Assembly (NCBI GenBank): GCA_964564435.1
Contig: CAZMAT010000004.1
Coordinates: 8,928-72,927 of the forward strand
Length of the DNA: 64,000 nucleotides
Direction: 5' to 3'
DNA from: an uncultured bacterium
GTDB taxonomy: Bacteria > Fermentibacterota > Fermentibacteria > Fermentibacterales > Fermentibacteraceae
Position numbers and translations under genes: made by a program. Of this stretch, positions 3,873 through 28,907 are shown piece after piece (the stretch's first letter is position 1; every line of letters starts with the position of its first letter). A model generated the notes under the pieces. That model did no database searches and had not been told where the DNA came from. It worked only from the letters and a program-made list of their open reading frames with translations.

Positions 3873-4382
3873 ATGGCCCAGGAATCGTTCAACTACAGGC
3901 TGTGGCGGTACGACGGCGCTCCGGGCGAGCTGATCCCGCTGCTCCAGTCGGCCCAGGAGCACTTCGGGTACATCCCCAGGGGCGCGATAAGGCACATCTC
4001 CTCCGTGACGGGGGTGCCCGAGGCGACGATCTACGGCGTCATCACGTTCTACAGCCAGTTCAGGCTGCAGCCGATGGGCCGGTTCGTCATCCGGATCTGC
4101 GACGGGACGGCGTGTCACGTCTCGGCCTCGAGGCAGCTCCTCGACGCTATCAGGGACGAGCTCTCCATCGAGATAGGCGAGACCGACTCCGAGAGCCTCT
4201 TCACGCTCACCACGGTGGCCTGCCTCGGATGCTGCTCCCTCGCTCCGGTGATGATGATCAACGACGAGACATTCGGCAGGCTCACACCGGCCGCCGTGAG
4301 GAAGATCCTGAAGGACTTCCGCCGCCGCCGCGACGCCGAAGGGAACGGATCTGCCGCAACCGGATGCGGGGTGGAGGCATGA
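3873..4382 (+). CDS. NuoE/HydC/StnA-like thioredoxin-fold [2Fe-2S] subunit
   Basis: 169 aa. The CDGTACH and CLGCC cluster motifs are typical of the NuoE 24-kDa family. An ATGA overlap couples it to the next gene. Confidence 0.85.
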   Translation: MAQESFNYRLWRYDGAPGELIPLLQSAQEHFGYIPRGAIRHISSVTGVPEATIYGVITFYSQFRLQPMGRFVIRICDGTACHVSASRQLLDAIRDELSIEIGETDSESLFTLTTVACLGCCSLAPVMMINDETFGRLTPAAVRKILKDFRRRRDAEGNGSAATGCGVEA

Positions 4383-6151: not shown

Positions 6152-6157
6152 GCCCTG

Positions 6158-9100: not shown

Positions 9101-9856
9101 CGCGACAGGGCCAGGGGCGACCTGGAGATCCTGGCCGGGCTCGCCGTGCTCGCCAACGCATCGGGCAGGCGGGCGGACATCCTGCTCCCGAGAGTGCTCC
9201 CGAACGGCGCCGCCCTGGAGGTGGCCGGAGCGTCTCCAGCATTCCTGCCCGGGCGCAGGCAGGCCGGGGAGAGGGAGGGGCATCCGGATCTCGCCCGGGC
9301 TCTCGAGGACGGCTCCATCAGGGCCGCTCTCGTGATTGGAGAGGATCCTCTCGGCAGCGACCGTACGGCCACCTGGTTCAGGAATGTCGAATTCCTCGCG
9401 GCCCTGGACTGGGCCTCCACCGAGACCACCCGCGCCGCCGGCGTCGTGCTCCCCGGATCGACCGGGCTCGAAGGATCGGGCACGAGGCTCGACTTCACCG
9501 GCTCTGCAAAGGCTTTCAGCAGGGCGGTAGCGCCGCCCGCCGGAATCGGAACGGCCGGCATGCTTGCGATGATAGCCGGGGAATGCGGCATCTCAGCCGA
9601 CTTGGAGACGATCGGTACGACCGTGAGGAAAGCGCTGGAAGCCGGATCCCCGGGGGTGGCGGGCTTCTACTGGAACGATGGAGTTCATCCCGTCTGGGAC
9701 GGAAAGGGCAGGCTCGGGCCGGTCGAGACGGGGCTCGAGCCCGGCAGGTTCTGCCCCCCGCTGACGGTGACTGCGCAGTACAGGGCCGGGATCGCAGAGG
9801 TCGGCAATGCCCGCTACCGCGTCCAGTCCGGTGTCAGAGGAAAAAATGTCAAGTAA
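6158..9856 (+). CDS. StnC-like large subunit: NuoG-type N-terminal [2Fe-2S] + inserted GltD-type FAD/NADPH oxidoreductase module + His/Cys [4Fe-4S] cluster domain + C-terminal molybdopterin-oxidoreductase-like (degenerate) domain
   Basis: 1232 aa. Residues ~1-80 read CHSPELEPYGSCFVCVVEV. Residues ~90-520 carry GGGPAGL, VVVGGGNTAMD and GGDAADD, like GltD/NfnB. HILYDPNKCVLCGRCIRTC and CVSCGNCVDACPTG follow. I see no TSCCP, MPCxxK or ExMACxxGC H-cluster motifs. Confidence 0.8.
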   Translation: MDTVKLIVNGTEVEARPGQTILEVVREHGLDDIPTLCHSPELEPYGSCFVCVVEVKGRPVLVPSCATRVTAGMEVETRNERVRASRKTALELLLSNHYADCVSPCKLGCPAGVDVQGYLALASMGETRKAVDLIRESNPLPAVCGRVCVRKCEAVCRRADVDSPVGINAVKRYLTDAPGVYDGQVERGPLNGKSVGIVGGGPAGLSAAWFLGRRGYAVTVYEAMEKAGGMVRYGIPEYRLPDEVLDREIDFVARAGVEIRTGVKVGRDIPFDELRHLHDAVFVAAGAWASNPMKVEGEFTTAGVVGGIEFLREKYHDRSPISGTVVVVGGGNTAMDVARTAWRLGADKVILLYRRTKAEMPADPMEIEDALHEGVEIMELAAPVGIGAVDGRLSSLRCIRMKLGEPDSSGRRRPVPMEGSEFDLPCDLAVAAIGQSPLLEGLAGAGGLPGTTKWGTVSVDTATMKTDVEGVFAGGDAADDGPTVVIDAIADGRTAALSIHAFLGGGDPPHPFIVRKDMWSKPGKAELGDIAESPRHEVHMLPVAEREGSFCEVATGFEWEDVLHEGAKCLSCGCLRYDDCELRLRAEEYGADVAHYAGHVRRHRPDDRHPHILYDPNKCVLCGRCIRTCARVLPVAALGLVGRGFRTEMRPAMNDPLVETNCVSCGNCVDACPTGALTVRLPYPGRACLEVVERATRCSVCSIQCPVRVMSHGSARYYITSSGVPGDYLCRSGRFANELYISSRRISAPSVRRGVETVVTDACSAVREAVTGLRKAAAEYGPGAVAVFVSAESTIEEMHLASRIAREGLGTGNIGSIAASCSSYDPAALDGMLGFTASTAGREALAQADLVICSNTSLEGDHPVLAVDILEAVRKRGAGLVVVNSALDDADRILSHAVLDPVRGTASVLWAGIVRRLAETGSVTKEAVASVPGGGEFLSSLGRTFEEACATAGVDPGSALAAVEAIAGASRIVIIHTPDRARDRARGDLEILAGLAVLANASGRRADILLPRVLPNGAALEVAGASPAFLPGRRQAGEREGHPDLARALEDGSIRAALVIGEDPLGSDRTATWFRNVEFLAALDWASTETTRAAGVVLPGSTGLEGSGTRLDFTGSAKAFSRAVAPPAGIGTAGMLAMIAGECGISADLETIGTTVRKALEAGSPGVAGFYWNDGVHPVWDGKGRLGPVETGLEPGRFCPPLTVTAQYRAGIAEVGNARYRVQSGVRGKNVK

Positions 9857-10044: not shown

Positions 10045-12414
10045 ATGATGGTTGTTCTTTTCTGCGCCGTACTTGCGTCGTCACAGGCGGATCAAGGTGT
10101 GACTTCCGCCGTCGTACCACGTGACTCCGGTACTGCTGTCGCCGGTCTTCCGGCGCTCGCAGAGGACAACCCCGGGCCCCTGCCCGGGCTGGTGACGGCC
10201 CTCGACGGAATGCACCACCGCGGCTGCCAGGCCGGAGGCATCGCGTCGCTGCTCGATGGATTCCCCGCCTGGTCGGCGCTCACGGGAGAGCCCTTCCTGA
10301 TAGCCCCTTCGGCCGCCGTCGAGAAGGAGGCCATCCTGACAGGCGGCCGGGCAGCAGGCGTCTTCTCCGGCCTGTCGGGTGCGACCGCCATCGTCACCAG
10401 AGCGCCCGAAACCCCGGGGCTTTCGGGTGAGGCCAGCTTCGGGATGGGTTCCATGGAGACCGGCGACATGACGCCTCTCTGGCACCCCCTCGTCCCCTCG
10501 CACGAGACGCGCCCCCTGCTCGAGGACTGCCTCACCGCCTCAGCAGCGGTCGAGGGGGCCGCGGAAGGCGTGATGCCTGGCCTGACCACGGTGCTCGTCT
10601 CCGGGGAGTTCGTCACATCCGGACCCGCCGACGCCGATGACGGCTCCTGGCGCGAGAACTGGGACAACAACGGCTACGAGAGATGGGAAGGCCTCGCGAG
10701 GCTCGGCTGGATCAAATCCGAATCCTTCGATGCGGACATCACCTTCGCCCTTCACGAGAGGGAGAGGGGCTGGTCGGACTGGTCCTGGAGCAGGTTCGAG
10801 GATCTCTACGTCGACCCCGAACCGTCGTCGCCGACGTACGGAGACACTCTCGGCGGTGGAGTCGGCATCGACTGCTCCCTCCCCACCCGCTACGACGAGG
10901 GATCGCTCGTCGGGCTCGATGCGAGCTTCGGCCTCGGTTCCTCCGGGACCCTCGGCGCCTCCCTGGCTGTGACCGGATCACGGATCTACACGAGGATCGA
11001 CGACCCCGCGGGGGGATATCTGGGCGAAGGCCTCGACGAGGAGTGGGAGTGGGCGGGCTACACACCTCCGGAACTCATCCTCGATTCTGACGGATTCGTC
11101 CGCAGCGGCGTGAGCGACCTCCTCTGGTACGACTCCGAGGACGATGCGCTCTCCGCAGGGCTCGACTGGAGCCTCGCCGCGGGGCGGCATTCCATCTCCG
11201 CCGCTTCAGGTCTGATACTGCACGACATGGAGGAGACCTGCGTCACCCTGCTCGACTCCCAGACAACCGTGGCCTTCCAGGAATGGGAGGCCTCCCCGAA
11301 GGAGGGCTTCCTCTCGGCAAGCGACGCGATCGACCTCTCCGGCGGTCTCGCAGTGACCCCCGGGCTGCGGCTGGGCTTCTTCGATCCCGCGTTCGACTTC
11401 ACGGAACTACCCATGCCCATTCCGCCGGGAGCGAACACCGGCGGCCCGTTGCCCGGCGGGAGCCTCTCGACCGAAGCCTCCGCGAAGACCTGGCTGGACA
11501 TGTCCCTGGCTGTCGTCCAGAGGCTCGACGCCCATCATTCCGTCACCGTCGAGTACTCGCGCGTTTCCAGGATGCCCCGCCCGGTCTTCCTCTACCCCGG
11601 CACGGATTCGATCCTCGTGAGCGAAGGCCAGTTCGTGGGCAACCCCGATCTCGACCCCGAGCGATGCTCCGATTTCTCGCTAGGTCTCTCCCGGACATGC
11701 CCCGGCCGCGGCGAGATGGGAGCATCCGTCTTCTACCGCACCATGGACGACCTGGTGAGGACCGAGCTGCGGGAGGACCCCGGCCAGGGCTCGTACCGCC
11801 AGTTCGACAACGGGGCGACAGCCACCGTGCAGGGTCTCGAGGTCTCCCATCGTGCAGGCCTGTCCGACTGGCTGGCCTGGTCCGCCACATACACGCTGAG
11901 CAAGGCCGAGGGCACCTGGTCGGTCCTCCAGCGGCCCTCGGACTATCAGTGGGCGACGCCCTGGATCTCCGAAGCGGACGAGTTCCCCCTGGAATGGGAC
12001 CGCAGGCACTCCCTGGACCTGTCGCTGACCAGTGAGTTCCCCGCCGGCTACGGCGCCCTGGGAGGGCTCGGAGCCGGGCTCGACTGGAGCTACGCGAGCG
12101 GATTCCCGCTGGATACGTCGTATTACGGCGAGGCTCCGGCGACCAGGAACGCGGAGCGGTACCCAGACATGACCAGGCTCGATGCATCCGTCTGGAAGCG
12201 GCACAGGCTGGGAGGCCTGGATCTGACCCTGAGGCTCGACGTCGTGAACGTTTCACAGGAGCGGAACATCGCCTGGGTGGTCGACCCGGAGTGGTACTTC
12301 GCCGAGCTGGGGGGTGACGGGGATCCGGAACTCGATCCGACGGGAGCCATGCATAACAGCCACGCCTTCGCCTCCCCGAGGCACTTCATGCTGGGGCTCT
12401 CGATAGGCTGGTAG
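10045..12414 (+). CDS. TonB-dependent receptor-like outer-membrane beta-barrel protein
   Basis: It has a signal peptide (MMVVLFCAVLASSQA). A plug-like N-terminal region reads SLLDGFPAWSALTG...GVFSGLSGATAIVTRAP. The C-terminal aromatic ending is ...GLSIGW. Confidence 0.6.
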   Translation: MMVVLFCAVLASSQADQGVTSAVVPRDSGTAVAGLPALAEDNPGPLPGLVTALDGMHHRGCQAGGIASLLDGFPAWSALTGEPFLIAPSAAVEKEAILTGGRAAGVFSGLSGATAIVTRAPETPGLSGEASFGMGSMETGDMTPLWHPLVPSHETRPLLEDCLTASAAVEGAAEGVMPGLTTVLVSGEFVTSGPADADDGSWRENWDNNGYERWEGLARLGWIKSESFDADITFALHERERGWSDWSWSRFEDLYVDPEPSSPTYGDTLGGGVGIDCSLPTRYDEGSLVGLDASFGLGSSGTLGASLAVTGSRIYTRIDDPAGGYLGEGLDEEWEWAGYTPPELILDSDGFVRSGVSDLLWYDSEDDALSAGLDWSLAAGRHSISAASGLILHDMEETCVTLLDSQTTVAFQEWEASPKEGFLSASDAIDLSGGLAVTPGLRLGFFDPAFDFTELPMPIPPGANTGGPLPGGSLSTEASAKTWLDMSLAVVQRLDAHHSVTVEYSRVSRMPRPVFLYPGTDSILVSEGQFVGNPDLDPERCSDFSLGLSRTCPGRGEMGASVFYRTMDDLVRTELREDPGQGSYRQFDNGATATVQGLEVSHRAGLSDWLAWSATYTLSKAEGTWSVLQRPSDYQWATPWISEADEFPLEWDRRHSLDLSLTSEFPAGYGALGGLGAGLDWSYASGFPLDTSYYGEAPATRNAERYPDMTRLDASVWKRHRLGGLDLTLRLDVVNVSQERNIAWVVDPEWYFAELGGDGDPELDPTGAMHNSHAFASPRHFMLGLSIGW

Positions 12415-12420
12415 CGGCGA

Positions 12421-13932
12421 TTACGTGTCGCGCGGAGCGGCGGGGCCGTCATGGCCCCGCCGCATGCGTCCTGCGAGGATCGCGGCGATGTGGTCAGGCA
12501 GGTCCCTGAGCTTCCTGTAGACCGTCATCTCGGTCTTCGTGCCGAAGCGGCCCTCGAGCAGCCTGACCGCCTGTGCGAGGACGGCGCCCGGCCGTCTGAC
12601 GAGCCTCGTGGCGTAGAATACGGCGTACACCGTCCACCTGTAGGCATCGAGCCTCCGGTAATCCGGGCGCCAGACCGGCGAGAAGCAGAGTTCGTCATAC
12701 TCCCGGAAGCCCTTGAGCGCCTCCTCCTCCATCGCGGGGGTGGCCGGGAAGGGCGTGACGACCGGCATGACGACCTCGTCCGCCCCGGACGAGGCCAGGC
12801 GGCCGACGTAGCGCCTCGTCATCCTCCTGTCCGCAGGCGTCTCGCCGGGATAGCCCGTGGCCATGAAGGCGCAGGTCTTCATGCCCAGCGAGGAGGCCTT
12901 CCTGAACAGGTGCGGCACCCTGTCGATGTCGGCCACCTTGTTCATCAGGGCCAGCACACGTGGAGAGCCGGTCTCCGGGCTGAGCGAGATGTACCTGCAT
13001 CCGGCCTTCGCCAGGAGTTCGAGCAGCTCGTCGTCCAGCGTCTCCATCTTGAGGCCCGAGGGGAAGCAGAACGTGAAGCCCGGATCGTGGCCTGCGAGCA
13101 TGCGGCATATCGAGACGGCACGGTCCCTGTCGATCGCGAAGTTCTCGTCCTGGATGTGGAAGTCGGTAAGCCCCCACAGCCTGTTGTGCCACTCCATCTC
13201 CTCCACGACCTTCGCCGCGCTCCGCGAGGTCCATTTCCCGCCTGACATGAGCGGCGCCTGGCAGAACGAGCACTTGTACGGGCATCCGCGGGAGGTGACG
13301 ATGTTCATGTACTTCCCCGCGAACGGACCGTGTCCGTATCGGAGCCGCCAGTAGTTCTCGAGCGGAAGCAGGTCGACCGCCCCGAAAGGCTGATGTTCGA
13401 GTTCGACCGGTCCTGCCGATCTAGGCGATATCCCCCTTGCGGAGGCGAGCCCGTCCTGCCCGTCGGGATTTTCGCCGCGCTCGAGCGCGTCCAGGAGGCG
13501 CGGGAGGCGCTCCTCTCCCTCGCCCATGACCACGTAGTCGGCTCCGGCAGCGATGAAGGCCTCGGGGACGAACGTCGCGTGATATCCCCCGACCACGGTG
13601 ACGATGCCAGGATGACCGGCCTTCACCGCGGCGAGTATCTCGCAGGCCATGGAGTGCTCGCCCGCGCAGTGGACGCTAACGCCGGCGACGGGGGTCGACG
13701 GATCGATCCTCCCTGAGATGCCGGCCGGGGTCAGCCCGCGGGCCGTGTACCTCGACCGGAACCTGTAGAAGTCGTGCGGTCTTTCGCCATATCCGTCGAC
13801 GATCGAGACCTCGTGGCCGCGGGCCCGGACCGAAGCTGCGAGATACGCTATCCCCGATGGGATGCCCGGGATGCTCCCGTACAGGTCTGCCGAGAGATGG
13901 ACGACCGGCGTCCTGACGAGGGCAATCCTCAT
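12421..13932 (-). CDS. cobalamin-binding (class B) radical SAM enzyme
   Basis: 503 aa. The N-terminal B12-binding fold reads MRIALV...GHEVSIVDG. The radical SAM CxxxCxxC reads SRGCPYKCSFCQ. A 4-nt overlap joins it to the upstream rSAM gene. Confidence 0.85.
   Translation of the reverse strand: MRIALVRTPVVHLSADLYGSIPGIPSGIAYLAASVRARGHEVSIVDGYGERPHDFYRFRSRYTARGLTPAGISGRIDPSTPVAGVSVHCAGEHSMACEILAAVKAGHPGIVTVVGGYHATFVPEAFIAAGADYVVMGEGEERLPRLLDALERGENPDGQDGLASARGISPRSAGPVELEHQPFGAVDLLPLENYWRLRYGHGPFAGKYMNIVTSRGCPYKCSFCQAPLMSGGKWTSRSAAKVVEEMEWHNRLWGLTDFHIQDENFAIDRDRAVSICRMLAGHDPGFTFCFPSGLKMETLDDELLELLAKAGCRYISLSPETGSPRVLALMNKVADIDRVPHLFRKASSLGMKTCAFMATGYPGETPADRRMTRRYVGRLASSGADEVVMPVVTPFPATPAMEEEALKGFREYDELCFSPVWRPDYRRLDAYRWTVYAVFYATRLVRRPGAVLAQAVRLLEGRFGTKTEMTVYRKLRDLPDHIAAILAGRMRRGHDGPAAPRDT
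12437..12463. terminator. GC-rich 11-bp-stem hairpin (gcggcggggcc-gtcat-ggccccgccgc) about 23 nt after the TonB-receptor stop, lying inside the 3' end of the convergent rSAM CDS
   Basis: A perfect inverted repeat is seen. There is no U-tract, so it may be a factor-dependent or bidirectional stop signal. Confidence 0.3.
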
Positions 13933-15437
13933 GCGGAGCTGTCGTTCCCGGTCGGCATCGCCGGTTTGCCGGAGTCATCGGGGTTTCCGGCCGCCGGTTC
14001 GGCGGAGTAGCTCGCAGTGGCGAGCAGGAGGAATCCCTTGAGGTACTTGGCGAGATCGTAGAAGCTGCGGATCGAGAGCACCTTCCGGATCACCATGCGC
14101 GGGTTCACGTAGAATCTCCTGTGCCCGGCCTGTATCAGGAACCGGATCTGCTCCTCGGTCATCCCCTCGGGCACGAACGACACGTTCTTGAAGTTGAACC
14201 TGTTCTCGGTGAACTTGGCGGGCTTGAGCCTCCCGCTCGTCAGGTCCTCGTACACGCTCGTCCCCGGAAGGGGCGTCAGGTTGACGAAGACGGCGTAGTC
14301 CAGGCCTATGGAGCACGCGAAGTCTATGGTCTCGAGACCCTCCTGGAACGTCTCGCCCGGGATGCCGAACATGAACGTGCCGTAGGCCTCGATCCCGGCC
14401 TTCGTCGTCATCCCGACGGCATTCCTGATCTGTTCGAGGGTGGTTCCCTTGCGGAGCGTATCCAGGTTCTTCTGCACGCCGGATTCGATCCCGTACAGGA
14501 TCCTCCAGCAGCCGGCCCTCTTCATCAGGCGGAGAAGCCGTTCGTTCACCCTGTCCACCCGGGCGTTGACCGCCCAGTAGACCCCCAGCCTCCGCCGGAT
14601 CATCTCCTCGCAGAAGGCGGTGGCCCTCTCCTCGGACAGGGTGAAGGTGTCGTCCCAGAAGGCGATGTCCCGCACGCCGTGCTCCCGTCTGAGCATCTCG
14701 ATCTCGTCGACGATGTTGACGGCGGACCGCATCCTGACCCTGGTGTCGGTATGGCAGAAGATGCAGTGGAACGGGCAGCCTCTGGCCCCGATGATGTTCG
14801 CGTGCGGGAGCCTCTTGTAGAAGGTCGGTGAGGGGAGGTAGTCCCTGACGTCGACGAGGCCGTGGGCAGGGAAGGGCAGCGTGTCGATGTCCGCAACCTG
14901 TGCCCTGGGCTCCGTCCGGACCAGTGCGCCCGACCCGTCCCTGCAGATCAGTCCCCGTATCCCCCCCGTCGGAGAACCTGAAGCCAGGGCTGCCGCCAGC
15001 TCCCTCATCGTGTGTTCGCCTTCTCCGTAGATCAGGAAGTCGATGGCGGGACACTCCTCGAAGCAGCGCTCCATCCAGAGCGTGGGATGGATGCCCCCGA
15101 CTACGATGCGGACTGATGGGAGCCGCTTCTTCAGCTCGGCTATCATCCACCGGGAGACCTCCCAGTCGACGCTGGTGATGGTGATGCCCACCAGGTCCGG
15201 AGAGATCGCGCCGAGCTTCTCGACCATCCGCTCGAACGGGTTGAACAGACCTTCGAGGTAGACGACCTCGTGCCCGTCCTGCATCAGGAAAGGCGCCAGA
15301 TAGAGAAGGGAGGGTGACGGGACGACGTTCACCAGCGGCTTGATGTGGAGCCAGCCGAACAGGCGCCTGCGCCGGTTCATGAAGTCATGCTGGTCCTGCT
15401 CCCAGGACGCCGGCATCGTAAGCAGAACTATCTTCAA
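13929..15437 (-). CDS. cobalamin-binding (class B) radical SAM enzyme
   Basis: Likely TTG start at 15437 (LKIVLLTMP...), preceded by AAGGA. The cluster motif reads ARGCPFHCIFCH. The upstream in-frame extension to 15947 is low-complexity junk. Confidence 0.8.
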   Translation of the reverse strand: MKIVLLTMPASWEQDQHDFMNRRRRLFGWLHIKPLVNVVPSPSLLYLAPFLMQDGHEVVYLEGLFNPFERMVEKLGAISPDLVGITITSVDWEVSRWMIAELKKRLPSVRIVVGGIHPTLWMERCFEECPAIDFLIYGEGEHTMRELAAALASGSPTGGIRGLICRDGSGALVRTEPRAQVADIDTLPFPAHGLVDVRDYLPSPTFYKRLPHANIIGARGCPFHCIFCHTDTRVRMRSAVNIVDEIEMLRREHGVRDIAFWDDTFTLSEERATAFCEEMIRRRLGVYWAVNARVDRVNERLLRLMKRAGCWRILYGIESGVQKNLDTLRKGTTLEQIRNAVGMTTKAGIEAYGTFMFGIPGETFQEGLETIDFACSIGLDYAVFVNLTPLPGTSVYEDLTSGRLKPAKFTENRFNFKNVSFVPEGMTEEQIRFLIQAGHRRFYVNPRMVIRKVLSIRSFYDLAKYLKGFLLLATASYSAEPAAGNPDDSGKPAMPTGNDSSA

Positions 15438-15600
15438 GGAGGAATCCTTCACGATCGGGTGGTCCGTACCGCTGCGGATTATAGGACCGCCTGCGCCGGC
15501 CGAGCAAGCAAGAAGGGGCGCGGGAACCCGGTCGAAACCCGTCCCCCCGCGCTCCTGCGGAGCTATAATGCCCGCAGCCCGCAGAACCGGAAGGAATCGC

Positions 15601-16614
15601 ATGCCGCCCGGAGTATCGATCGTCATACCTGCATGGAAGGCATCCAGGACCATCGTGGACTGCCTCGCCTCGATCTCCGCCCAGACCCTCCCCCCTGTCG
15701 AGGTGGTGGTGGTCGACGATGATTCGCCTGACGACACCGCCTCGATGGCCGAGGCGCTCGGTGCGAGGGTGGTCAGGCTGCCGCGCAACATGGGCCCCGC
15801 CAGGGCCAGGAACGAGGGGGTGGCGGCAGCCTCGGGAGATGTGATCCTGTTCGTGGATTCCGACGTGGCCGTTCCCGAGGGCCTCGTGGAAGCGATCCAC
15901 GCACGTTTCGAGGATCCGGCCGTTTCGGCGGTCCAGACCCTGTACACCCCTTCCTGCCCCGCCTCCGGTCTGGTCTCCCGCTACCAGAACTTCTACTACC
16001 ACCATGCCCTGGCGCGCGTCAGGGAGGAGAGCACCGCCATCTTCGCGACCTGGTGCGCGGCGGTGAGGAAGGACCTGTTCGAGAGGCTCGGCGGCTTCAA
16101 CACCGACATCCCCGAACCCACGGTCGAGGACGAGGAGTTCGGGTACGCGATCGCCGATGCCGGAGGCAGGATCATACTCGACAAGTCCCTGCAGGTCATT
16201 CACATGGCCTCATATGACCTCCGCGGGTTCGCGAGGCGCCGGATGAGGATGGCCAGGGCCCAGGCCAAGAGCGGACTCCGGCAGATACGCGACAGGCTCC
16301 TCGCCCGGTACATCAACGTGCACGAGACCGGGACCCACCACAGCAGGCTCGTCGTTGCGTCCATCCTGATGATGCCCCTCTCCCTGGCGTTCGCCGCATC
16401 CGCGATCCCCTGCGGGCCCTCCATGCTGGCTCCGTCCTCGCTTCTCTTCGCATCCGCGATGCTGTGCCACCTGGACTTCTTCAGGAAGGCCTCGAGGCAG
16501 TTCGGCCCGGAAATACTGCCGGGCTTCGCACTCATGTGCGCGGCCGACATGCTGATCCTGGCCTGGGGCATCATGCGCGGTACTGCGAGCTTCGTACTCG
16601 GGAGGCGCTACTAG
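15601..16614 (+). CDS. family-2 glycosyltransferase with C-terminal membrane anchor (GtrB/polyprenyl-phosphate sugar synthase-like)
   Basis: ATG at 15601 follows GGAAGGAA. It has the GT2 motifs VSIVIPA, VVVDDDS and FVDSDV. It is paralogous to the 19180-20175 gene; both contain NFYYHH/HY and both end ...GRRY. Confidence 0.8.
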   Translation: MPPGVSIVIPAWKASRTIVDCLASISAQTLPPVEVVVVDDDSPDDTASMAEALGARVVRLPRNMGPARARNEGVAAASGDVILFVDSDVAVPEGLVEAIHARFEDPAVSAVQTLYTPSCPASGLVSRYQNFYYHHALARVREESTAIFATWCAAVRKDLFERLGGFNTDIPEPTVEDEEFGYAIADAGGRIILDKSLQVIHMASYDLRGFARRRMRMARAQAKSGLRQIRDRLLARYINVHETGTHHSRLVVASILMMPLSLAFAASAIPCGPSMLAPSSLLFASAMLCHLDFFRKASRQFGPEILPGFALMCAADMLILAWGIMRGTASFVLGRRY

Positions 16615-16642
16615 CCGATGCCCGGCGTGCCGTCGGGCGGGG

Positions 16643-17356
16643 TCAGATCCTCCCTGCGATGAACTTGAGCATCGTGTGCAGCACCGTGAATCCGTACGGG
16701 ATGGGCTTCAGGCTGGAGTAGCCCTCCCCGTGGAGCGTGGGGATGGGCACCTCTCGTATCGACAGCTTCTTGCGTATCGCTCCGGCGAGCATCTCGGAAT
16801 CGAAGTTGAACGTGTCGGAATAACCGTGGTAGGGGATCGTTTCCAGCGCCTTCCTGCTGTAGGCCTTGTACCCGCTGTGATAGCTCGACAGATCGGCCCT
16901 GAAGACGAAGTTCTCGAGCCGGTTGAGCACGATCGTCCCCCAGTACCGGGTCTGGGACATCCCGCCCTCTCGCATGTCGCCGTACATCGTCCTGCTCCCG
17001 CCGACCACGTCGACGCCCTCGTGCAGCGGTGCGAGCATGGCCAGCAGGAAGCCGGGCGGGTACTGGCCGTCGGAGTGCAGCATGACCGCCCCGCTCGCTC
17101 CGTTCTCCAGCGACCAGTCGAAGGCTGTCTTCTGCGCGGCTCCGTACCCCCTGTTCACGGGGTGGTCGACGACGACGACCTTTGGGAACTCCGCCGACAG
17201 ATCCCGGGCCCTGTCTCCCGTGCCGTCGCTGGAGCCGTCGTTCACCACGAGCAGGGCGTCGACTGCATCCCAGGCCTCGGAAGGGATGTTCCTGAGAACT
17301 CCTTCTATGAACCTGCCCGTGTTGTATGCGGGCATGAAGCAGATGTGATCCATCAC
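16643..17356 (-). CDS. family-2 glycosyltransferase, DPM1/ArnC-like polyprenyl-phosphate sugar synthase
   Basis: 237 aa. The motifs are PAYN, VVNDGSSDGT and HSDGQY. It is the last gene of the minus-strand operon. Confidence 0.85.
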   Translation of the reverse strand: MMDHICFMPAYNTGRFIEGVLRNIPSEAWDAVDALLVVNDGSSDGTGDRARDLSAEFPKVVVVDHPVNRGYGAAQKTAFDWSLENGASGAVMLHSDGQYPPGFLLAMLAPLHEGVDVVGGSRTMYGDMREGGMSQTRYWGTIVLNRLENFVFRADLSSYHSGYKAYSRKALETIPYHGYSDTFNFDSEMLAGAIRKKLSIREVPIPTLHGEGYSSLKPIPYGFTVLHTMLKFIAGRI

Positions 17357-17429
17357 CCGGGCCTTCCTGTCTCTCGGTAAGAATGCGGGAAGCTACTCCA
17401 GTCCCTCCCGCGGCGCAAGGATCCGACGC

Positions 17430-19178
17430 TCACGGATCGTCGGTCGAGGAGTTCGACGGAGCCCAACCTGGTCTGAGATCCCTTTCCGCCGTCAGCTCGG
17501 ACGCTTTCGAGTACGTCCAGGGCTCGATCCTTGCCACGCCTGCCTCCATCCAGAACAGGTAGGCGTTCCTGCCCGGGAAGACCGACTCCATGGCCGCCAG
17601 ATCGTCCCCGGGCGACTGGTGGGCGCAGAAGACGAAGTTGCCGTCGAGGAAGGGGTCCGTGGCCAGGAGACCGCTCACGATGTTCGGATAGCCGTGCTCC
17701 GATGCCTCCATGAAGATGACCGCGGGCGGTTCGGCCGCTCTTTCCGCCGCTTCGACCGGGATCGTGTCGATGGCCTGCCAGGGGCCGCTCCGGAGCGCGA
17801 TCCCGTCCGGCAGGTACACCGGCAGCGTCGTGAACGCGAACAGGCCGGCCGCCGCATACACGGCGCGGCACCCCCAGCGGCCTGCAGCCTTCGACAGGCC
17901 GGCGGCGCAGAGCAGGGCGAAGCACGGGAGCGCCGTGTAGTAGTGCCTGGGCCCGTAGTCTATCGAGGCGGAATAGTGCAGGATCATGAACGGGGCGAAC
18001 ACTGCGATGGAGCCCGCGACAAGCGCCCATCTCCCCCTGTCGCGGCCGTCGATGAACGCGAACAGGGGCGGCAGGAGGGACAGGAACGGCCAGCCCAGGA
18101 GGATCGTGCTCCCCGCCCCCGCCTGCTTCGCGAGGTTCATCAGACCTCTGAGCGGCGTATGCGCCCGGTCGCCGTACTCGGGGAACCAGGCCCTGTCCGG
18201 GCCGAATCCTATGAGCCCGCCACCCCTTGCGAGATCGTAGGCCGGCGTGAAGGGGTCGCCGGTGTAGAACCGGTTGGCCGCCAGCAGGAACAGGACGGGC
18301 GGGATCGCGCCGGCCGCTATCCTGGCCAGGGCCGGGAAGGCCCCGGACCGGAGCGTGAAGAGCAGGGCGACCGTGATGGTGACGGCCCAGGGAAGGACAG
18401 TGTACGGCTTCGTGCAGAGCGAGAGCCCGAGGAGGAATCCCGCGGCTGCCTGTAGCCATCCGCTCCTCCCCGCCCCCCGGACGCTCCGCACGATCAGACA
18501 GAGGGCCCAGACCACGAGCGCGAGCTCCGTGTTGTGGGCCATGTGGGTGGGTGCCATGAAGAGGAGGAAGGGAGAAAGGGCCATGATGACAAGGGCGGTC
18601 CTGGCCACCGTCCTGCCTGCGAGGCTCCTGAAGAGAAGGAATGCGCCGGCAAGGGCGAGGACGCCCTCGAGGGGGCCCAGCAGCGGGCTGATGCCCGCAC
18701 GGGTGAACGGGGCCATCACGAGTGCGTGCAGCGGGGTGTACATCGTGAACCACATGCCGTCGTGGAACACGAAGTGCCTGAAGGGGAAGAGGTCCCTGGG
18801 GCTGTCTACGCCGGGGGCGGGGGCGGCGGCCTCTCCTCTGGCGTAGATCGTGCTCTGGATGTAGTAGGCCGCCTCGTCCCCGCCCCTGGGCATCCCCTCG
18901 AGCGGCCCGAAGGCCATCCAGGCAGTAAAGGCGAACACCGGGACCGAGACAGCAGCGAAGAACACGGCATCGCCCGGGCCGTCGACCATCCTCCTGGCAA
19001 GGTCCATCGGCCTGCGCTCGCCTCGCAGCGAGGCTGCGAACAGCAGCGCCGCCGGGACGAGTGTGACGAGCTGGACCGCCTTGTCGGCAGGACCCGACAG
19101 CCTCGAGCCCGAGCCGGCATAGACTGCGAAGGCCGCGAGGAGCACGACGCAGGCGAGGAGGAGAGGAACCGGCCTCAA
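17430..19178 (-). CDS. GT-C fold membrane glycosyltransferase (PMT/ArnT-like, polyprenyl-phosphate-sugar dependent)
   Basis: 582 aa with more than 10 predicted TM segments. An acidic loop motif (PRGGDEAAYY) sits near the first loop, as in the GT39/GT83 families. It is flanked by GT2 synthases. Confidence 0.65.
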   Translation of the reverse strand: MRPVPLLLACVVLLAAFAVYAGSGSRLSGPADKAVQLVTLVPAALLFAASLRGERRPMDLARRMVDGPGDAVFFAAVSVPVFAFTAWMAFGPLEGMPRGGDEAAYYIQSTIYARGEAAAPAPGVDSPRDLFPFRHFVFHDGMWFTMYTPLHALVMAPFTRAGISPLLGPLEGVLALAGAFLLFRSLAGRTVARTALVIMALSPFLLFMAPTHMAHNTELALVVWALCLIVRSVRGAGRSGWLQAAAGFLLGLSLCTKPYTVLPWAVTITVALLFTLRSGAFPALARIAAGAIPPVLFLLAANRFYTGDPFTPAYDLARGGGLIGFGPDRAWFPEYGDRAHTPLRGLMNLAKQAGAGSTILLGWPFLSLLPPLFAFIDGRDRGRWALVAGSIAVFAPFMILHYSASIDYGPRHYYTALPCFALLCAAGLSKAAGRWGCRAVYAAAGLFAFTTLPVYLPDGIALRSGPWQAIDTIPVEAAERAAEPPAVIFMEASEHGYPNIVSGLLATDPFLDGNFVFCAHQSPGDDLAAMESVFPGRNAYLFWMEAGVARIEPWTYSKASELTAERDLRPGWAPSNSSTDDP

Positions 19179-19179
19179 A

Positions 19180-20175
19180 TCAGTATCTCCTGCCGGCGAG
19201 GGCGGCCGCGGCCGCCGAGAGCGAGGCCGGGACTATCAGCGCGAGATCGGGCCAGAGCAGGAAGCCGGCCCTGAATCCGCGGAAGCCGCCTGCCTTCGTC
19301 ATGGCCGACAGGAACGGGACGTTCACCGCGATCAGGGCCGCCAGGCTGCCCATGGCGGCAGGAAGCCCCCATCCGGCCCCGAAGGAGTAGAGGGCCCCGC
19401 AGGCCGCCGCGAGCCACGGCAGCACCGCGCCGGTGATCACCGGAAGCATCTCGCCGAAGCCCGCCACGCTGATCGAGGGGGCTCCCCTGTCCCGCCCGCG
19501 GCGCATGATGTAGAGGGCCTTCGCCCGCATCATCCTCCACTCGTAGGCGAGGAGCGATGGCACGTCGTACTCCCTGAGATGACAGACCTCGATCTCCGGG
19601 GCGATGGCGATCCTCCCGCCGAGGGCCCACAGCCTCTCCGAGAAGTCCGCATCCTCGATGGTGGCACCCCTGATCCTCTCGTCGAAGCCGCCCAGCTCTG
19701 CGAAACGCTCGCGGGTGACGGCGAAGAAGAAGGTGCCGCATCCCTTGATATGAGGGCCCCTGATCCTCCGGGTGAAGGTGTAGTGGTAGTAGAAGTTCTT
19801 GTAGAACGTCGCGGCGCCTCTGCCCGGAGCATCCGGGCCGTACACCGCCTGGACCGCGTCGGCTACATCCATCCTGTCCTCGAGCATCCCCCTCCAGCCG
19901 GCAGGGGGCACCGCATCCGCGTCGAGGAAGAGGATCCAGGCTGTCTCCGCAAGTCTCCCGCCCGTGTTCCTGGCGCATGCAGCGCCGGGGCCGCCCGCGG
20001 ACGGGACCGTCTCGATCCCCATGGAGTCGAGCAGTTCCCGGGACCCATCGGAAGACCTGTCGTCCACGGCGATGATCCGGTCTCCCGGGAGCAGGCCCTC
20101 CCGGGCGGCGCGTGCGACTCTGCCGAGGGTCGATGCTCCATCGTGGACAGGCATTACGACAGTGACCGAAGGCAC
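19180..20175 (-). CDS. family-2 glycosyltransferase with C-terminal membrane anchor (paralog of 15601-16614)
   Basis: The motifs are VTVVMPVHDG, IIAVDDRSSDGS and LDADAV. A hydrophobic C-terminal tail ends ...GRRY. Confidence 0.8.
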   Translation of the reverse strand: MPSVTVVMPVHDGASTLGRVARAAREGLLPGDRIIAVDDRSSDGSRELLDSMGIETVPSAGGPGAACARNTGGRLAETAWILFLDADAVPPAGWRGMLEDRMDVADAVQAVYGPDAPGRGAATFYKNFYYHYTFTRRIRGPHIKGCGTFFFAVTRERFAELGGFDERIRGATIEDADFSERLWALGGRIAIAPEIEVCHLREYDVPSLLAYEWRMMRAKALYIMRRGRDRGAPSISVAGFGEMLPVITGAVLPWLAAACGALYSFGAGWGLPAAMGSLAALIAVNVPFLSAMTKAGGFRGFRAGFLLWPDLALIVPASLSAAAAALAGRRY

Positions 20176-20176
20176 G

Positions 20177-21616
20177 CTACTTCTTCCGACGGCTCTTCTC
20201 GAACTGCTCCGACGCCATCATGAGCAGGCTCTTCGCTCCGTGCCACACGGCGCGGAGCTGGAAGGGCGACGAGATGTTCCTGAACCTGTAGAGGAGGAAC
20301 GATGGCCTGAAGAAGTACCTGATGTAGGCCAGGCGCCGCAGCTCCATGATCTGGTCGCCGGTCATGGTGAAGGGTACGAAGCAGGGCCTGTCGAGCAGCA
20401 TGCCCTGGTCGTTCAGGCGGCTGCTCATCGAACCGTACTTGCCCTGCTCGACACCCCGGTACAGGGCTGTTCCCGGGAAGGGGGTGATGGGGAAGAACTC
20501 GACGGTGAAGCTGCCGAGCCTCTTCGCGAACTCGATCGTCCGGAGCCCCTCCTCGAAAGTCTCGCCGGGGATCCCGAAGATGTAGGTCGTGTGGGTCTTG
20601 ATCCCCACGCTGTGGGCCATGCGCACGGCGAGCTCTATCCGCTCGATCTTCTCCCTCTTCACCAGCGTGTCGAGGTTCTTCTGCACTCCGCTCTCCACGC
20701 CGAAGTTGATGCACCAGCATCCAGAGTCCTTCATGGCGCGAAGTATCTTCCTGTCCACCGCATCCGCACGGCACGAGCACCACCAGCGGACGTTCAGGTC
20801 GCGCTTCGTGAGTTCCTCGCAGAATGCGTACGTGTGTGCGTGGCTGTAGGTGAAGTGCTCGTCCCAGAACTTGATCTCCCGGGCGCCGTATCTCTTCACA
20901 TAGTATTCGATCTCGTCCACGACCCGCTTCGGGTCCCTCAGGCGTATCCTCCTGCCGTACATCTTGTAGCAGTAGAGGCAGGTGCCGCTGCAGCCGCGGC
21001 TGGCGAGCGTCTGCATGACCGGTAGGGTGGAAACCTGCTCGAAGCTCGGGTAATACCTGTCCATCTCGCAGAGATCGACAGCGGGGAAGGGAAGGGAGTC
21101 GAGATCCTCCACAAGCGGCCTGTTCGCAGTGCGCACCATCCCGCCGGACGGATTCCTGAAGGCGAGGCCTGCGACTCCGTCCAGAGGCCTTCCGCACGCG
21201 ACTGCATCGATCATCTCGCCCGCGGTGGCTTCGCCTTCGCCGATCACAACCGCGTCGAGATCAGCGCACTCCGACAGCATCCTCTCGGGCATGGCCGTTG
21301 CTCCGTGGCCGCCTATGAACGTGAAGATCGAGGGGTTGTCGCGCCTCGCGGCCTCGATGAACGGGGAGGCCTTGTGCCACAACAGGCTGATGACGTAGAC
21401 CCCGAGGGCCTCGGCACCGAACTCCGCCACCCGCTTCCGCATGTCCTCGCTGGAATGGAAGAAGCCCTCGAGGTAGATGACCTCGTGACCGCGTTCCCGG
21501 AGCACCGCAGCTATGTACTGCATGCCCGGGGTCGGCCAGCATCCCGCTATCCCCCTGGTATCGTTCGCCCTGATGTCATCGGGTCCCCAGGGCGGGACTA
21601 CAAGCGCGACACGCAT
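20177..21616 (-). CDS. cobalamin-binding (class B) radical SAM enzyme
   Basis: Start at ATG 21616 (MRVALVVPPWG) follows GAGG. The cluster motif reads SRGCSGTCLYCY. The upstream in-frame residues of the 21736 ORF look non-coding. Confidence 0.85.
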   Translation of the reverse strand: MRVALVVPPWGPDDIRANDTRGIAGCWPTPGMQYIAAVLRERGHEVIYLEGFFHSSEDMRKRVAEFGAEALGVYVISLLWHKASPFIEAARRDNPSIFTFIGGHGATAMPERMLSECADLDAVVIGEGEATAGEMIDAVACGRPLDGVAGLAFRNPSGGMVRTANRPLVEDLDSLPFPAVDLCEMDRYYPSFEQVSTLPVMQTLASRGCSGTCLYCYKMYGRRIRLRDPKRVVDEIEYYVKRYGAREIKFWDEHFTYSHAHTYAFCEELTKRDLNVRWWCSCRADAVDRKILRAMKDSGCWCINFGVESGVQKNLDTLVKREKIERIELAVRMAHSVGIKTHTTYIFGIPGETFEEGLRTIEFAKRLGSFTVEFFPITPFPGTALYRGVEQGKYGSMSSRLNDQGMLLDRPCFVPFTMTGDQIMELRRLAYIRYFFRPSFLLYRFRNISSPFQLRAVWHGAKSLLMMASEQFEKSRRKK

Positions 21617-21750
21617 CGGCCGACCTCTTTCGCAAATGGTTGCAGAATATGGCAGCCCCCGCCCGGCCGTGCCAACGCGGTTCTGCCCGGGAGAACCGGG
21701 ATATGTCCGGGCTCGTGCTTGTACACGACTCCACATGGGGCTATACTGAT

Positions 21751-22197
21751 ATGGAAGGTTCCCCGGCCCCTGGCGGCACTGACCGGAGGTGGGACGTGAT
21801 CGCCGAAGGATTCTGGGAATTCGCGAAGACCACGGTCATCGCCGTCGCCGCTCTGTTCGCCCTGCTCGTGGTGATGCTGGCGCTGCCTCACTCGCCCTTC
21901 CGGAGGGTCTTCCTCAGGGCTGCCGCATGGCTGCTGGGCGCCACGACCCTGGTGGCGCTGGTCTACATCATCAGCCCCGCCGACCTTCTGCCGGACGTCA
22001 TCCCCCTGCTCGGGCAGATCGACGATCTGGGCGCGCTGGTGAGTGCCGTGACGACGGGTGTCGCGGCAGCTGCTGCTGCGGTCGGTTCGAGGAAGGTCCC
22101 GCCCTCGCCCGATGGTTCGAGAGAGATAGTGATCGAACCTTCGGACGGGGAGACGGACGCGGCCGACCGGCCGGGGGGCATCGACACGGGGAGATAG
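21751..22197 (+). CDS. DUF1232 (YkvA-like) small membrane protein
   Basis: The signature ISPADLLPDVIPLLGQIDDLGAL precedes a TM helix. It is divergent from the rSAM/GT operon. Confidence 0.55.
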   Translation: MEGSPAPGGTDRRWDVIAEGFWEFAKTTVIAVAALFALLVVMLALPHSPFRRVFLRAAAWLLGATTLVALVYIISPADLLPDVIPLLGQIDDLGALVSAVTTGVAAAAAAVGSRKVPPSPDGSREIVIEPSDGETDAADRPGGIDTGR

Positions 22198-22211
22198 CGG
22201 AGGGAGTCCCC

Positions 22212-22352
22212 ATGAGATTCTGTATCGGATCCAGGTGGAACCTGGCGGCAATCCTCGTCCTCTCCACCGCGGGACCCGCAGCCGCCGGGTCGCAGGGCGG
22301 GCAGCAGGCCCGCGACATCCCGTCCGACGGAGAGCGCTTCGTCTTCACCTGA
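22212..22352 (+). CDS. short signal-peptide ORF, possibly the N-terminus of a frameshifted secreted protein continuing in the +1 frame to 22807
   Basis: A strong RBS (GGAGGGAG) precedes ATG 22212 and a clean signal peptide (MRFCIGSRWNLAAILVLSTAGPAAAGSQ). A stop comes after 47 aa. The adjacent frame stays open with Thr/Ser/Gly-rich, beta-strand-like sequence as far as 22807. Confidence 0.3.
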   Translation: MRFCIGSRWNLAAILVLSTAGPAAAGSQGGQQARDIPSDGERFVFT

Positions 22353-22841
22353 ACTTCTTCTACGAATGGCAGGGTCCCGACGGTTCGCAGATCGCATGGA
22401 GCGCCGACCAGAACTCCTGCAGCATATTGCTCACCGCGATGCACAATTCCCTGACGGATACGTGGGGGATCGGAGGGGACGGCGACATCCCCGTGATTGT
22501 CACCATCGTCACTCCCGACGGGGCCATGACCGGTGCGGGTTCGACCTCGGTGGACGTGGGAGGGTCGATTCGAAACGGGCTCGTCACCCTGACGGTCCTC
22601 GAGACGACGGGCGGCTTCTACACGATTACGGTCTACGAGTATTCCATGACCCTCTTCACCACCGAGAACACCAGCAGCCACGAGGTCGTCTTCACGTGGG
22701 AGGCCGCATCCACCACCGGCGACATGGTGAGTATCGGCACTGAAAACGGGTACATATCGGCGACCCTGGAACCCTACGACGCCTGGGACCCCGGGTTGCA
22801 GCCCTGATCCCCCGGCTGGGGCGGCGGAGGAAGGAGAGGAG

Positions 22842-23111
22842 ATGGCGAGATCCTACAGGTACAGGTTCGGCGGTTCGGCAGCGACGCTCGTCCTCAACAT
22901 GAAGAGGATGGCCGATGCCAACCACGTCGACTTCTCCGGTGACGACAAGGCCGGCGAGGTCGAGGGCATGGGCGCCAAGGGCTCCTATGCCATCGAAGGC
23001 GACGAGGTCACCGTCACCATCCACAGAATCCCCTTCATCATCTCCTGGGGTACCGTGGAGGAGCAGCTCGACAGCACGGCGAGAACCTGGGGCGCCACCC
23101 GGATGACATGA
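22842..23111 (+). CDS. small hypothetical protein (89 aa)
   Basis: A strong RBS (GGAAGGAGAGGAG) precedes the ATG. The sequence is acidic and non-repetitive. Confidence 0.5.
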   Translation: MARSYRYRFGGSAATLVLNMKRMADANHVDFSGDDKAGEVEGMGAKGSYAIEGDEVTVTIHRIPFIISWGTVEEQLDSTARTWGATRMT

Positions 23112-28718: not shown

Positions 28719-28907
28719 AGGCGATCTCCGTGACGCACACGGATCATCTGCCCGCAATGCGAACGTGGAGCCTGTCGGGCGCCGGAGCTTCACTCCCCCC
28801 TGAAGGCGATCTCCGTGACGCACACGGATCATCTGCCCGCAATGCGAACGTGGAGCCTGTCGGGCGCCGGAGCTTCACTCCCCCCTGAAGGCGATCTCCG
28901 TGACGCA
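28707..28907. repeat. 85-bp direct tandem repeat, about 2.4 copies (two identical full copies plus a 31-nt partial)
   Basis: The unit actcccccctgaaggcgatctccgtgacgcacacggatcatctgcccgcaatgcgaacgtggagcctgtcgggcgccggagcttc occurs at 28707 and 28792, and partially at 28877. The first copy contains the stop of the 27327 gene. The last partial copy encodes the C-terminus of the convergent 28875 gene. Confidence 0.8.

Follow-up and report, generated by a model that had tools for sequence, protein, structure and literature searches.

The standard route by which bacteria add sugars to lipid A, teichoic acids, arabinogalactan and envelope proteins couples a polyprenyl-phosphate-sugar synthase to a GT-C glycosyltransferase; besides ArnC/ArnT, such pairs include GtrB/GtrC, PpgS/Rv3779, Ppm1/Pmt and CsbB/YfhO. 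The sugar can be tailored at the polyprenyl-phosphate stage, before GT-C transfer, as by ArnD in the Arn pathway and by DprE1/E2 in the case of decaprenyl-phosphate arabinose. To our knowledge, the known tailoring of lipid-linked sugars uses ordinary redox or hydrolytic enzymes. Here we analyze a seven-gene cassette in a 64,000-nucleotide stretch of DNA (the window) from an uncultured bacterium of the Fermentibacteraceae (GCA_964564435.1, contig CAZMAT010000004.1, positions 8,928 to 72,927). In this cassette a couple of that type is embedded among genes for three radical S-adenosylmethionine (SAM) proteins, rSAM1 to rSAM3, and two extra membrane-bound family 2 glycosyltransferases (GT2s), which sets it apart from the known pairs. 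We put at about one in two the probability that the cassette makes and tailors a cell-envelope glycoconjugate by the polyprenyl-phosphate-sugar/GT-C route in a diderm bacterium of the Fermentibacterota.

C-methylation via methylcobalamin is the commonest reaction of proteins that combine a B12-binding domain with a radical SAM core, and one sugar-tailoring enzyme of this architecture, MoeK5, acts in the assembly of a phosphoglycolipid. GenK, GenD1 and MoeK5 are listed as C-methylating sugars (PMC12931638). By description, these enzymes and GntE, which is listed with GenD1 (PMC12931638), have the domain architecture of ours and tailor sugars within glycosyltransferase-rich clusters, but those are actinomycete secondary-metabolite clusters and not envelope cassettes with a GT-C. 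AprD4, the radical SAM 1,2-diol dehydratase of apramycin biosynthesis, also acts on a sugar ring; its substrate is a soluble aminoglycoside and its genes belong to an antibiotic cluster. Finally, in the HpnI-HpnK-HpnJ system, which makes bacteriohopanetetrol cyclitol ether, and in archaeal Cds, a membrane GT2 is paired with a B12-type radical SAM enzyme, which reshapes a lipid-bound sugar by radical ring contraction (PMC13459092).

The cassette shares with ArnC/ArnT a short DPM1/ArnC-type GT2 beside a polytopic GT-C with a conserved acidic DE motif. It differs in having no ArnA/B/D-type sugar-synthesis or flippase genes, and its short GT2, in which we found no hydrophobic segment, is missing the C-terminal membrane helices of ArnC and GtrB. 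The polyprenyl-phosphate-sugar/GT-C couple in turn distinguishes it from the HpnI-HpnK-HpnJ and Cds systems, as does the lack of hopanoid, tetraether and deacetylase genes.

Gene order and synteny

All seven genes reported by the initial annotation are present at the coordinates that it gave, with the content that it described. The longer operon is on the minus strand and begins with rSAM3 (20177-21616; 479 aa), in which a B12-binding-type domain and a radical SAM core are followed by a helical C-terminal domain. It continues through GT2b (19180-20175; 331 aa, a membrane GT2) and GT-C1 (17430-19178; 582 aa, a polytopic, GT39/GT83-like GT-C with a C-terminal periplasmic domain) to the short GT2dpm (16643-17356; 237 aa, a GT2 of the type that makes polyprenyl-phosphate sugars). 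The gaps are 1, 1 and 73 nt. GT2a (15601-16614, plus strand; 337 aa), with a GT-A domain followed by C-terminal hydrophobic helices, converges on GT2dpm. Beyond it lie rSAM2 (13929-15437, minus; 502 aa, TTG start) and rSAM1 (12421-13932, minus; 503 aa), where the start of rSAM1 overlaps the stop of rSAM2 by 4 nt.

Third-position GC of 0.83-0.87 in the called frames, in a window of 63-70% G+C, supports this map of 12.4-21.6 kb, and the same gene calls, including the 502-aa rSAM2, were made on independent metagenome contigs encoding identical proteins. A consensus scan placed a sigma-70-like site, a pattern match only, 30 nt 5' of the rSAM3 start (21646-21675, minus; TTGGCA, 18-nt spacer, CATATT, with an upstream TG). 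The 163-nt intergenic region between the divergent rSAM2 and GT2a (15438-15600) is presumed, solely from that arrangement, to be a bidirectional promoter region; the scan matched no sigma-70-like site in it. No intrinsic-terminator-like sites were found in the region, and no cobalamin riboswitch in the window, where the Rfam families are two tRNAs alone.

We next consider relatives. Named homologues of rSAM1, rSAM3 and GT-C1 come from Candidatus Fermentibacteria, Fermentibacteraceae, Sabulitectum and Aegiribacteria, all of the phylum Candidatus Fermentibacterota in the FCB group; rSAM1 has orthologues at 55-76% identity in metagenome-assembled genomes named Fermentibacterota. A metagenome scan with an alignment of GT-C1 gave 79 loci, to which the seven window proteins were mapped by tblastn. 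Our counts concern the 37 loci in which identity to GT-C1 reaches 40%, and take as denominators those with enough flank. rSAM3 and GT2b stand directly upstream of GT-C1 in 22/28 loci. Downstream, GT2dpm (whose orthologues, 64-76% identical, always stand just after GT-C1) and the opposite-strand GT2a follow in 21 of 24, whereas rSAM2 and rSAM1 come after GT2a in only 9 of 17; where they are absent, the next genes are housekeeping ones (POR, a transporter). The recurrent block is thus rSAM3>GT2b>GT-C>GT2dpm><GT2a: a five-gene core, to which rSAM2-rSAM1 form an accessory module. The three radical SAM proteins are therefore not equivalent, rSAM3 belonging to the conserved core and the other two being optional. 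The initial annotation had seen two operons; its genes and strands stand, but the two are separate evolutionary modules, the shorter operon occurring in about half of the loci.

In locus L087 the seven genes recur with order and orientation unchanged at 60-80% identity, and an additional UbiE-type class-I methyltransferase gene (5872-6573, minus, in that locus) lies between GT-C1 and GT2dpm on the opposite strand. A UbiE-type methyltransferase occupies this position in most relatives (also L095-L102, L106, L107 and L112). In the window the corresponding place is the 73-nt gap (17357-17429), the methyltransferase having been lost or never gained.

In many relatives the cassette lies in a slot after ClpB and before a 263-aa gene and POR, either with the rSAM2-rSAM1 module (L087, L095-98, L106, L107 and L112) or without it (L100-L103). 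In two loci this slot holds an alternative cassette (L105, 9950-14829; L109, 9947-13946). There the GT-C1 orthologue, 56% identical in L105 and 49% in L109, is accompanied by a 382-386-aa GT2, a class-I methyltransferase and a 329-aa SPASM-type radical SAM protein (scanned in L105 only), in place of the rSAM3/GT2b/GT2dpm/GT2a set. Elsewhere the cassette is shuffled (L088, L120 and L122). In L088, a more distant locus than L087 (GCA_900174595.1, FWPV01000187.1; 5387-16297), the order is GT2dpm, a GT2a/b-like gene, rSAM2, an rSAM3-like gene, rSAM1, GT-C1 (33% identity) and two more radical SAM genes, five of B12 type in all; the number of radical enzymes per cassette ranges from one to five.

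None of the genes flanking the ClpB-POR slot surrounds the cassette in the window, where its flanks are a TonB-receptor-like barrel on one side and a DUF1232 protein and an OmpA-family protein on the other. The cassette is in a different neighborhood here, and has therefore moved as a unit. The outer-membrane genes singled out by the initial annotation are really there, but, one near-identical contig apart, they have no counterparts beside the cassette in relatives; we rejected them as part of the system and regard them as incidental.

Could the juxtaposition be fortuitous? GT2 and class-B-like radical SAM genes are common. In a background set of 55 loci, obtained by scanning genome contigs with the rSAM1 alignment (a scan driven by the generic radical SAM motif, which returned 25-31% homologues from unrelated phyla and no Fermentibacterota), tblastn and a hidden Markov model of the GT-C1 alignment put a GT2 within 10 kb in 8 cases and weak GT-C matches in 4, although this profile missed the known PMT_2 genes of two distant loci described below (L175 and L176). 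However, order and orientation are kept at 43-80% protein identity across dozens of loci and in two chromosomal neighborhoods, with gaps of 1 nt and an overlap of 4 nt. The initial annotation had named a lack of synteny in relatives as fatal to its proposal; the locus is instead strongly syntenic, and the survey effectively refutes chance association, to which we give hardly any credence.

The radical SAM proteins and the glycosyltransferases

The predicted domains of all three radical SAM proteins agree with the initial annotation. Pfam places an N-terminal B12-binding domain (PF02310, 57-73 bits against a cut-off of 32.1) and a radical SAM domain (PF04055, 71-82 bits) in each, with 56.8 and 79.5 bits for rSAM1 and 72.9 and 81.9 bits for rSAM2. 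The CxxxCxxC motif reads CPYKCSFC, CPFHCIFC and CSGTCLYC in rSAM1, rSAM2 and rSAM3, respectively, and its cysteines are invariant in the family alignments of rSAM1 (C217, C221 and C224, among 21 homologues) and rSAM3. rSAM2 and rSAM3 are paralogues with 37.5% identity; rSAM1 is 26-29% identical to either.

To place these proteins relative to characterized enzymes we used the curated NCBIfam cut-offs and comparison with the Protein Data Bank (PDB). None of the three reaches an equivalog cut-off, and all fall far below (scores follow as bits/cut-off). By this proxy none clusters firmly inside a characterized clade, which was the other outcome that the initial annotation had named as fatal to its proposal. 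The best match of rSAM1 is ApyD (133/750) and its best ratio TIGR04013 (121/251); it also matches RiPP (ribosomally synthesized and post-translationally modified peptide) C-methyltransferase models below cut-off. For rSAM2 the best ratio is to BchE (213/481). HpnJ (TIGR03471, cut-off 577.6 bits) is the top match of rSAM3 (183 bits) and the second of rSAM2 (177 bits), and gives 84 bits with rSAM1. Ratios are all lower for the HpnR (63-96/650 for the three), TsrM, PhpK, KedN5, BzaD, MgmA and ladderane-lipid radical SAM (95-116/360) models. Among PDB sequences AprD4 matches each of the three proteins best, and it is also the best whole-length fold match of rSAM3 (PDB 6fd2, the closest solved structure, at 22% identity); the B12-binding methylases MgmA (30.5), CysS (30.2) and TsrM (29.5) are close behind. 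Against the NCBIfam AprD4 model the three score 70-107/500.

AprD4 has a Rossmann-type domain but binds no cobalamin (PMC12931638), whereas rSAM1 to rSAM3 pass the Pfam cut-off for B12 binding. Moreover, methylases in this superfamily have no feature of sequence or structure that would tell them from enzymes of other chemistries, and most of its groups have no known reaction (PMC12931638). For these reasons cobalamin use, a domain prediction, and C-methylation are both only predicted here. The description of the enzymes as cobalamin-dependent and typically C-methylating is thus borne out for the B12-type domain; dependence and methylation are presumptions, the more so as rSAM3 folds closest to a cobalamin-free enzyme.

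GT2a and GT2b are paralogues with 32% identity, as had been proposed. Both have two or three C-terminal hydrophobic segments, consistent with membrane anchoring, both end in GRRY, and both conserve the D, DxD, ED and RMxRAK-type motifs. PF00535 scores 117 bits in GT2a, which also matches Glyco_transf_21 (44.6 bits), and 63.3 bits in GT2b. Neither reaches the cut-off of MftF (280; GT2a 110, GT2b 76) or of TIGR04283 (182; 74 and 64), the models for mycofactocin and arsenosugar glycosyltransferases. The best PDB sequence match of GT2a is 6yv7-9 (E 1e-17 over residues 3-282), the Pyrobaculum protein PcManGT, an archaeal membrane GT2 that binds GDP-mannose (PMC12595478). The two share a GT-A domain followed by membrane helices, with D, DxD and ED kept, but their similarity is low.

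HpnI (44/310) and HpnB are also among the NCBIfam matches of GT2a. Together with the HpnJ matches, this raises the possibility that GT2b and GT2a put a hexose directly on a membrane lipid alcohol and that ring contraction of this pyranose by rSAM3 and rSAM2 yields a carbocyclic head group of the cyclitol or calditol type, for which HpnI with HpnJ, and Cds, are known precedents (PMC13459092). The arrangement would suit this, since there are two paralogous GT2-radical SAM pairs, rSAM3>GT2b being 1 nt apart and rSAM2 divergent from GT2a, and rSAM>GT2 adjacency recurs in two of the distant loci below (L094 and L174). Nevertheless, scores of about a third of the HpnJ cut-off and a seventh of the HpnI cut-off mean that these proteins are not members of those families, and BchE scores as well as HpnJ, which implies general superfamily similarity. 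There is no HpnK-type deacetylase or hopanoid gene, and the conserved GT2dpm/GT-C1 couple would be left without a role. We consider ring contraction of this sort, which would be a special case of sugar tailoring, improbable.

GT2dpm (PF00535, 76.7 bits) appears from sequence to group with the polyprenyl-phosphate sugar synthases of the DPM1/ArnC/GtrB/PpgS type, while remaining short of the curated equivalog cut-offs: its top NCBIfam matches are AglJ (76/325), the dolichyl-phosphate hexose transferase DPhHxTase (62/375) and PpgS (56/370), and ArnC gives 23/529. Its best PDB sequence matches are Pyrococcus DPMS (5mlz) and ArnC. The couple of a DPM1-like GT2 with a GT-C that the initial annotation recognized is supported by the fixed place of GT2dpm after GT-C1 in relatives.

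Because the GT-C call was the weakest of the seven, a family alignment and a structure prediction were made for GT-C1. Its PMT_2 score (23.3 bits) is under the Pfam gathering score of 26.1, and it has no PDB sequence match at E<=1; most orthologues, however, carry PF13231 in precomputed annotation, and NCBI names them GT39. The protein has at least 10 hydrophobic segments. An AlphaFold (AF2) model was confident (pLDDT, the predicted local distance difference test, 88.6; pTM, the predicted template-modeling score, 0.90), and the top 37 Foldseek matches to it are all of GT-C fold. ArnT (5f15) leads, with E 6e-6, template-modeling (TM) scores of 0.52/0.56 and 12% identity, followed by STT3/AglB/PglB, ALG9, Pmt4, Emb and Aft. 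Among 39 aligned family sequences D101 never varies and E102 is kept in at least 90%; they stand after the third hydrophobic segment, a position at which GT-C enzymes carry a catalytic acidic motif. On the evidence of the model GT-C1 is a polytopic GT-C-fold protein, and the PMT/ArnT-like call holds. With so low an identity and no ArnA/B/D-like genes in the cassette, it does not qualify as ArnT proper. It is also lineage-specific: 120 homologues have at least 42% identity, after which identity drops to 28%.

These assignments bear on another explanation, that GT2dpm and GT-C1 attach O-linked sugars to envelope proteins, in the manner of actinobacterial Ppm1/Pmt, while the radical SAM proteins modify protein or peptide. 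The Pfam family of GT-C1 (PMT_2) and the GT39 name of its orthologues are in line with this, as are the RiPP enzyme ApyD as best match of rSAM1, the RiPP C-methyltransferase models behind it, and the position of MgmA, a protein glutamine methylase, as second-best fold match of rSAM3. However, ApyD is matched only distantly, the best fold of GT-C1 is ArnT and not a PMT, and the two membrane GT2s would have no role. Furthermore, no conserved small open reading frame (ORF) or precursor-like gene travels with the cassette, on which ground we rejected a precursor-peptide reading; relatives, in which ClpB abuts rSAM3, lack the small ORFs that precede rSAM3 in the window. Protein-directed modification therefore seems to us distinctly unlikely.

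A second, stand-alone GT-C lies at 30559-32376 (plus; about 9 hydrophobic segments, with a PMT_2 score of 29.9 bits). No partner GT2 adjoins it, and its neighbor at 28875-29810 (minus, 311 aa) has no Pfam match. It had been counted as extra sugar-transfer capacity, but we see no sign that it is part of the system: BLAST gives no similarity between it and GT-C1, regulatory genes intervene, and it was not seen in related loci.

Sugar or lipid as the substrate

Homologues of rSAM3 at 41-42% identity occur in three loci (L174, L094 and L175) of organisms with 38-45% GC, all in glycan contexts. Their arrangement is a polytopic membrane protein or PMT_2 GT-C, then the radical SAM gene, then a GT2. 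L174 has PMT_2 GT-C > rSAM > GT2 > GT2 > GT2, the last with a GT2_TM_C domain, together with an NTP-transferase, epimerase/dehydratases, an FdtA-type isomerase and two further PMT_2 genes. L094 has a 635-aa polytopic membrane protein > rSAM > GT2 > NTP-transferase > epimerase > GT2; a PMT_2 GT-C was detected in the other two loci but not in this one, which also has a ketoacyl-synthase gene about 9 kb off. In L175 a PMT_2 gene, a GT9 and an amine-oxidase/GLF-like gene lie near the rSAM3 homologue. Similarly, rSAM1 homologues at 37-38% identity are found directly downstream of an 874-882-aa polytopic membrane protein, in which PMT_2 was called in L176 only, and the surrounding clusters contain GT4, GT2 and methyltransferase genes. 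The recurring partners are thus glycosyltransferases and nucleotide-sugar enzymes rather than lipid enzymes, and so point to a sugar rather than a lipid tail as the substrate.

The initial annotation had drawn an analogy with hopanoids, glycerol dialkyl glycerol tetraethers and membrane-spanning lipids. Here the radical SAM proteins would methylate, cyclize or cross-link a lipid hydrocarbon (compare HpnP/HpnR, GrsA/B, Gmm, Tes and Mss), and the glycosyltransferases would add head-group sugars. Glyco_transf_21, matched by GT2a, is a ceramide-glucosyltransferase-type model of a family that glycosylates lipids directly, and the ladderane-lipid and HpnR models weakly match all three radical SAM proteins, even if with scores far below cut-off. 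Class-B-like radical SAM enzymes also include several lipid-tail modifiers (PMC13459092). The context lends this no support. Pfam detected no tes, mss, shc, ether-lipid or isoprenoid gene in the window, leaving four ORFs without a match, and none of the domains of a hopanoid context (shc, hpnH, hpnI, hpnK) is present among the window genes. Bacterial gms genes cluster with tes or mss (PMC11214058), unlike here: there is no further radical SAM gene within 30 kb, and the sole other one in the window (52781-53803) was not compared with Tes or Mss. The rest of the window encodes redox enzymes, regulators, tRNA-modification and folate enzymes, FtsH, PriA, peptidases and ABC exporters. The distant homologues, as described, lie among nucleotide-sugar and glycosyltransferase genes, the L094 ketoacyl synthase being some way off. 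Hopanoid- or tetraether-type modification is accordingly less likely than sugar tailoring, and action on a lipid tail has in our judgment only a slim chance of being correct. The further claim that no cyclase, polyketide synthase or nonribosomal peptide synthetase gene is present was accurate for about 10 kb around the cassette.

Beyond domain and fold assignment, we infer the following steps for the envelope-glycoconjugate pathway. At the cytoplasmic face GT2dpm would charge polyprenyl phosphate with the sugar of a nucleotide sugar, as suggested by its family resemblance and its fixed place beside the GT-C. The lipid-linked sugar would then be flipped, and GT-C1 would transfer it on the periplasmic side to an acceptor, perhaps lipid A/LPS (lipopolysaccharide), another outer-membrane glycolipid, or protein. 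GT2a and GT2b, which resemble PcManGT and a minimal cellulose synthase, may use nucleotide donors to glycosylate a membrane-bound acceptor at the cytoplasmic face. rSAM3, which always travels with GT2b and is probably translationally coupled to it, would act by radical chemistry on one of these sugars or on a sugar-lipid intermediate; C-methylation, AprD4-like deoxygenation, epimerization and HpnJ/Cds-like ring rearrangement are equally allowed by its sequence. rSAM2 and rSAM1 would contribute further, optional tailoring steps.

The optional module fits a familiar pattern, in that strain-variable glycan decorations are usually present in only part of a set of related genomes. The variability of the slot, which can hold the core, the core plus module or the alternative cassette, with or without the methyltransferase, appears to resemble the strain-level variability of surface-glycan loci.

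Several observations weigh against this proposal. The nearest rSAM3 homologues outside the clade (about 50% identity; L092, 7852-11422, and L093, 1110-4683, including candidate division CSSED10-310) are not beside glycosyltransferases but follow a peptidase M24 gene and an opposite-strand DUF1189 gene. The nearest rSAM1 homologues, at 40-45% (L089 and L090), likewise lack adjoining glycosyltransferases. Association with glycosyltransferases is therefore not universal in either radical SAM family. The background control was too insensitive to show GT-C adjacency above chance for class-B-like radical SAM proteins, and we claim no enrichment outside the phylum. The cassette contains no nucleotide-sugar synthesis gene and no flippase candidate, and the ArnT match, with a TM score of about 0.5 and 12% identity, says nothing about the acceptor. 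Sequence does not distinguish methylation from other chemistry (PMC12931638), and no substrate, product or activity has been assigned to any of the seven proteins or their close homologues.

The rSAM1 homologues just mentioned (L089, 8922-11506, 45%; L090, 8602-11521, 40%) are Fermentibacterota paralogues that follow a 360-368-aa radical SAM protein without a B12-type domain. This partner has a weak SPASM match in L090, and the pair looks like a separate two-radical-SAM system.

Surroundings and significance of the cassette

On the low-coordinate side of the cassette in the window, 551-9856 (plus) is a run of Fe-S/flavin oxidoreductase genes. Besides a DHODB-type Fe-S protein and a GltD-like protein, they encode a NuoF-like protein of 749 aa that carries ferredoxin domains and a fusion of 1232 aa that combines 2Fe-2S, GltD-like and NuoG/molybdopterin-like domains; the products may form an electron-bifurcating NAD(P)H-linked complex. 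The 789-aa outer-membrane barrel protein that follows (10045-12414, plus) matches a TonB-dependent-receptor barrel model with 58 bits; it has no Plug-domain match in its first ~280 residues and is an atypical, receptor-like protein. On the other side, 21703-23111 (plus) holds the DUF1232 gene and three small ORFs (46, 122 and 89 aa) before the OmpA-family gene. Pfam matches neither the 122-aa nor the 89-aa ORF, and the DUF1232-small-ORF stretch is present only in near-identical contigs.

Further along the window, a 634-aa protein with a Tim44-like domain (32383-34287, minus) and a LarA-N-domain protein (34206-35525) adjoin a histidine kinase (35530-36927) and a response regulator with a PglZ domain (36896-38461, plus). 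The fourth radical SAM protein (52781-53803, plus; 340 aa) has PF04055 only, without a B12-type domain. Its neighbors are priA and a 275-aa ORF without a Pfam match, which lies downstream of a DisA-type diadenylate cyclase gene.

Literature searches (Fermentibacteria with radical SAM; B12-radical SAM with glycosyltransferase and glycolipid) found no description of the cassette, nor was a radical SAM-containing polyprenyl-phosphate-sugar/GT-C system found in the searchable literature. The database names of rSAM1, rSAM3 and GT-C1 homologues are generic. We rate the cassette as familiar in its logic of envelope glycosylation, undescribed in its layer of radical tailoring, and conserved across the uncultured phylum. 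A bolder version, which we advance tentatively and would not bet on, is that Fermentibacterota and some other uncultured anaerobes that have the rSAM>GT2/GT-C arrangement possess a new type of envelope glycosylation pathway. In it, radical SAM enzymes would act on polyprenyl-phosphate- or membrane-lipid-linked sugars before delivery to the outer leaflet by a GT-C, with the optional rSAM2-rSAM1 pair giving strain-level variation, and would yield C-methylated, deoxygenated or carbocyclic, cyclitol-like sugars in a glycoconjugate of the outer membrane.

If this is true, radical sugar chemistry, so far associated with antibiotics and with hopanoid or calditol head groups, would reach the cell envelope of an entire phylum, and three unassigned branches of the radical SAM superfamily would gain functions. 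The natural presence or absence of rSAM2-rSAM1 offers a ready comparative experiment. Fermentibacterota are common in digesters and anoxic sediments, and the modified sugars could define a chemical marker for them.

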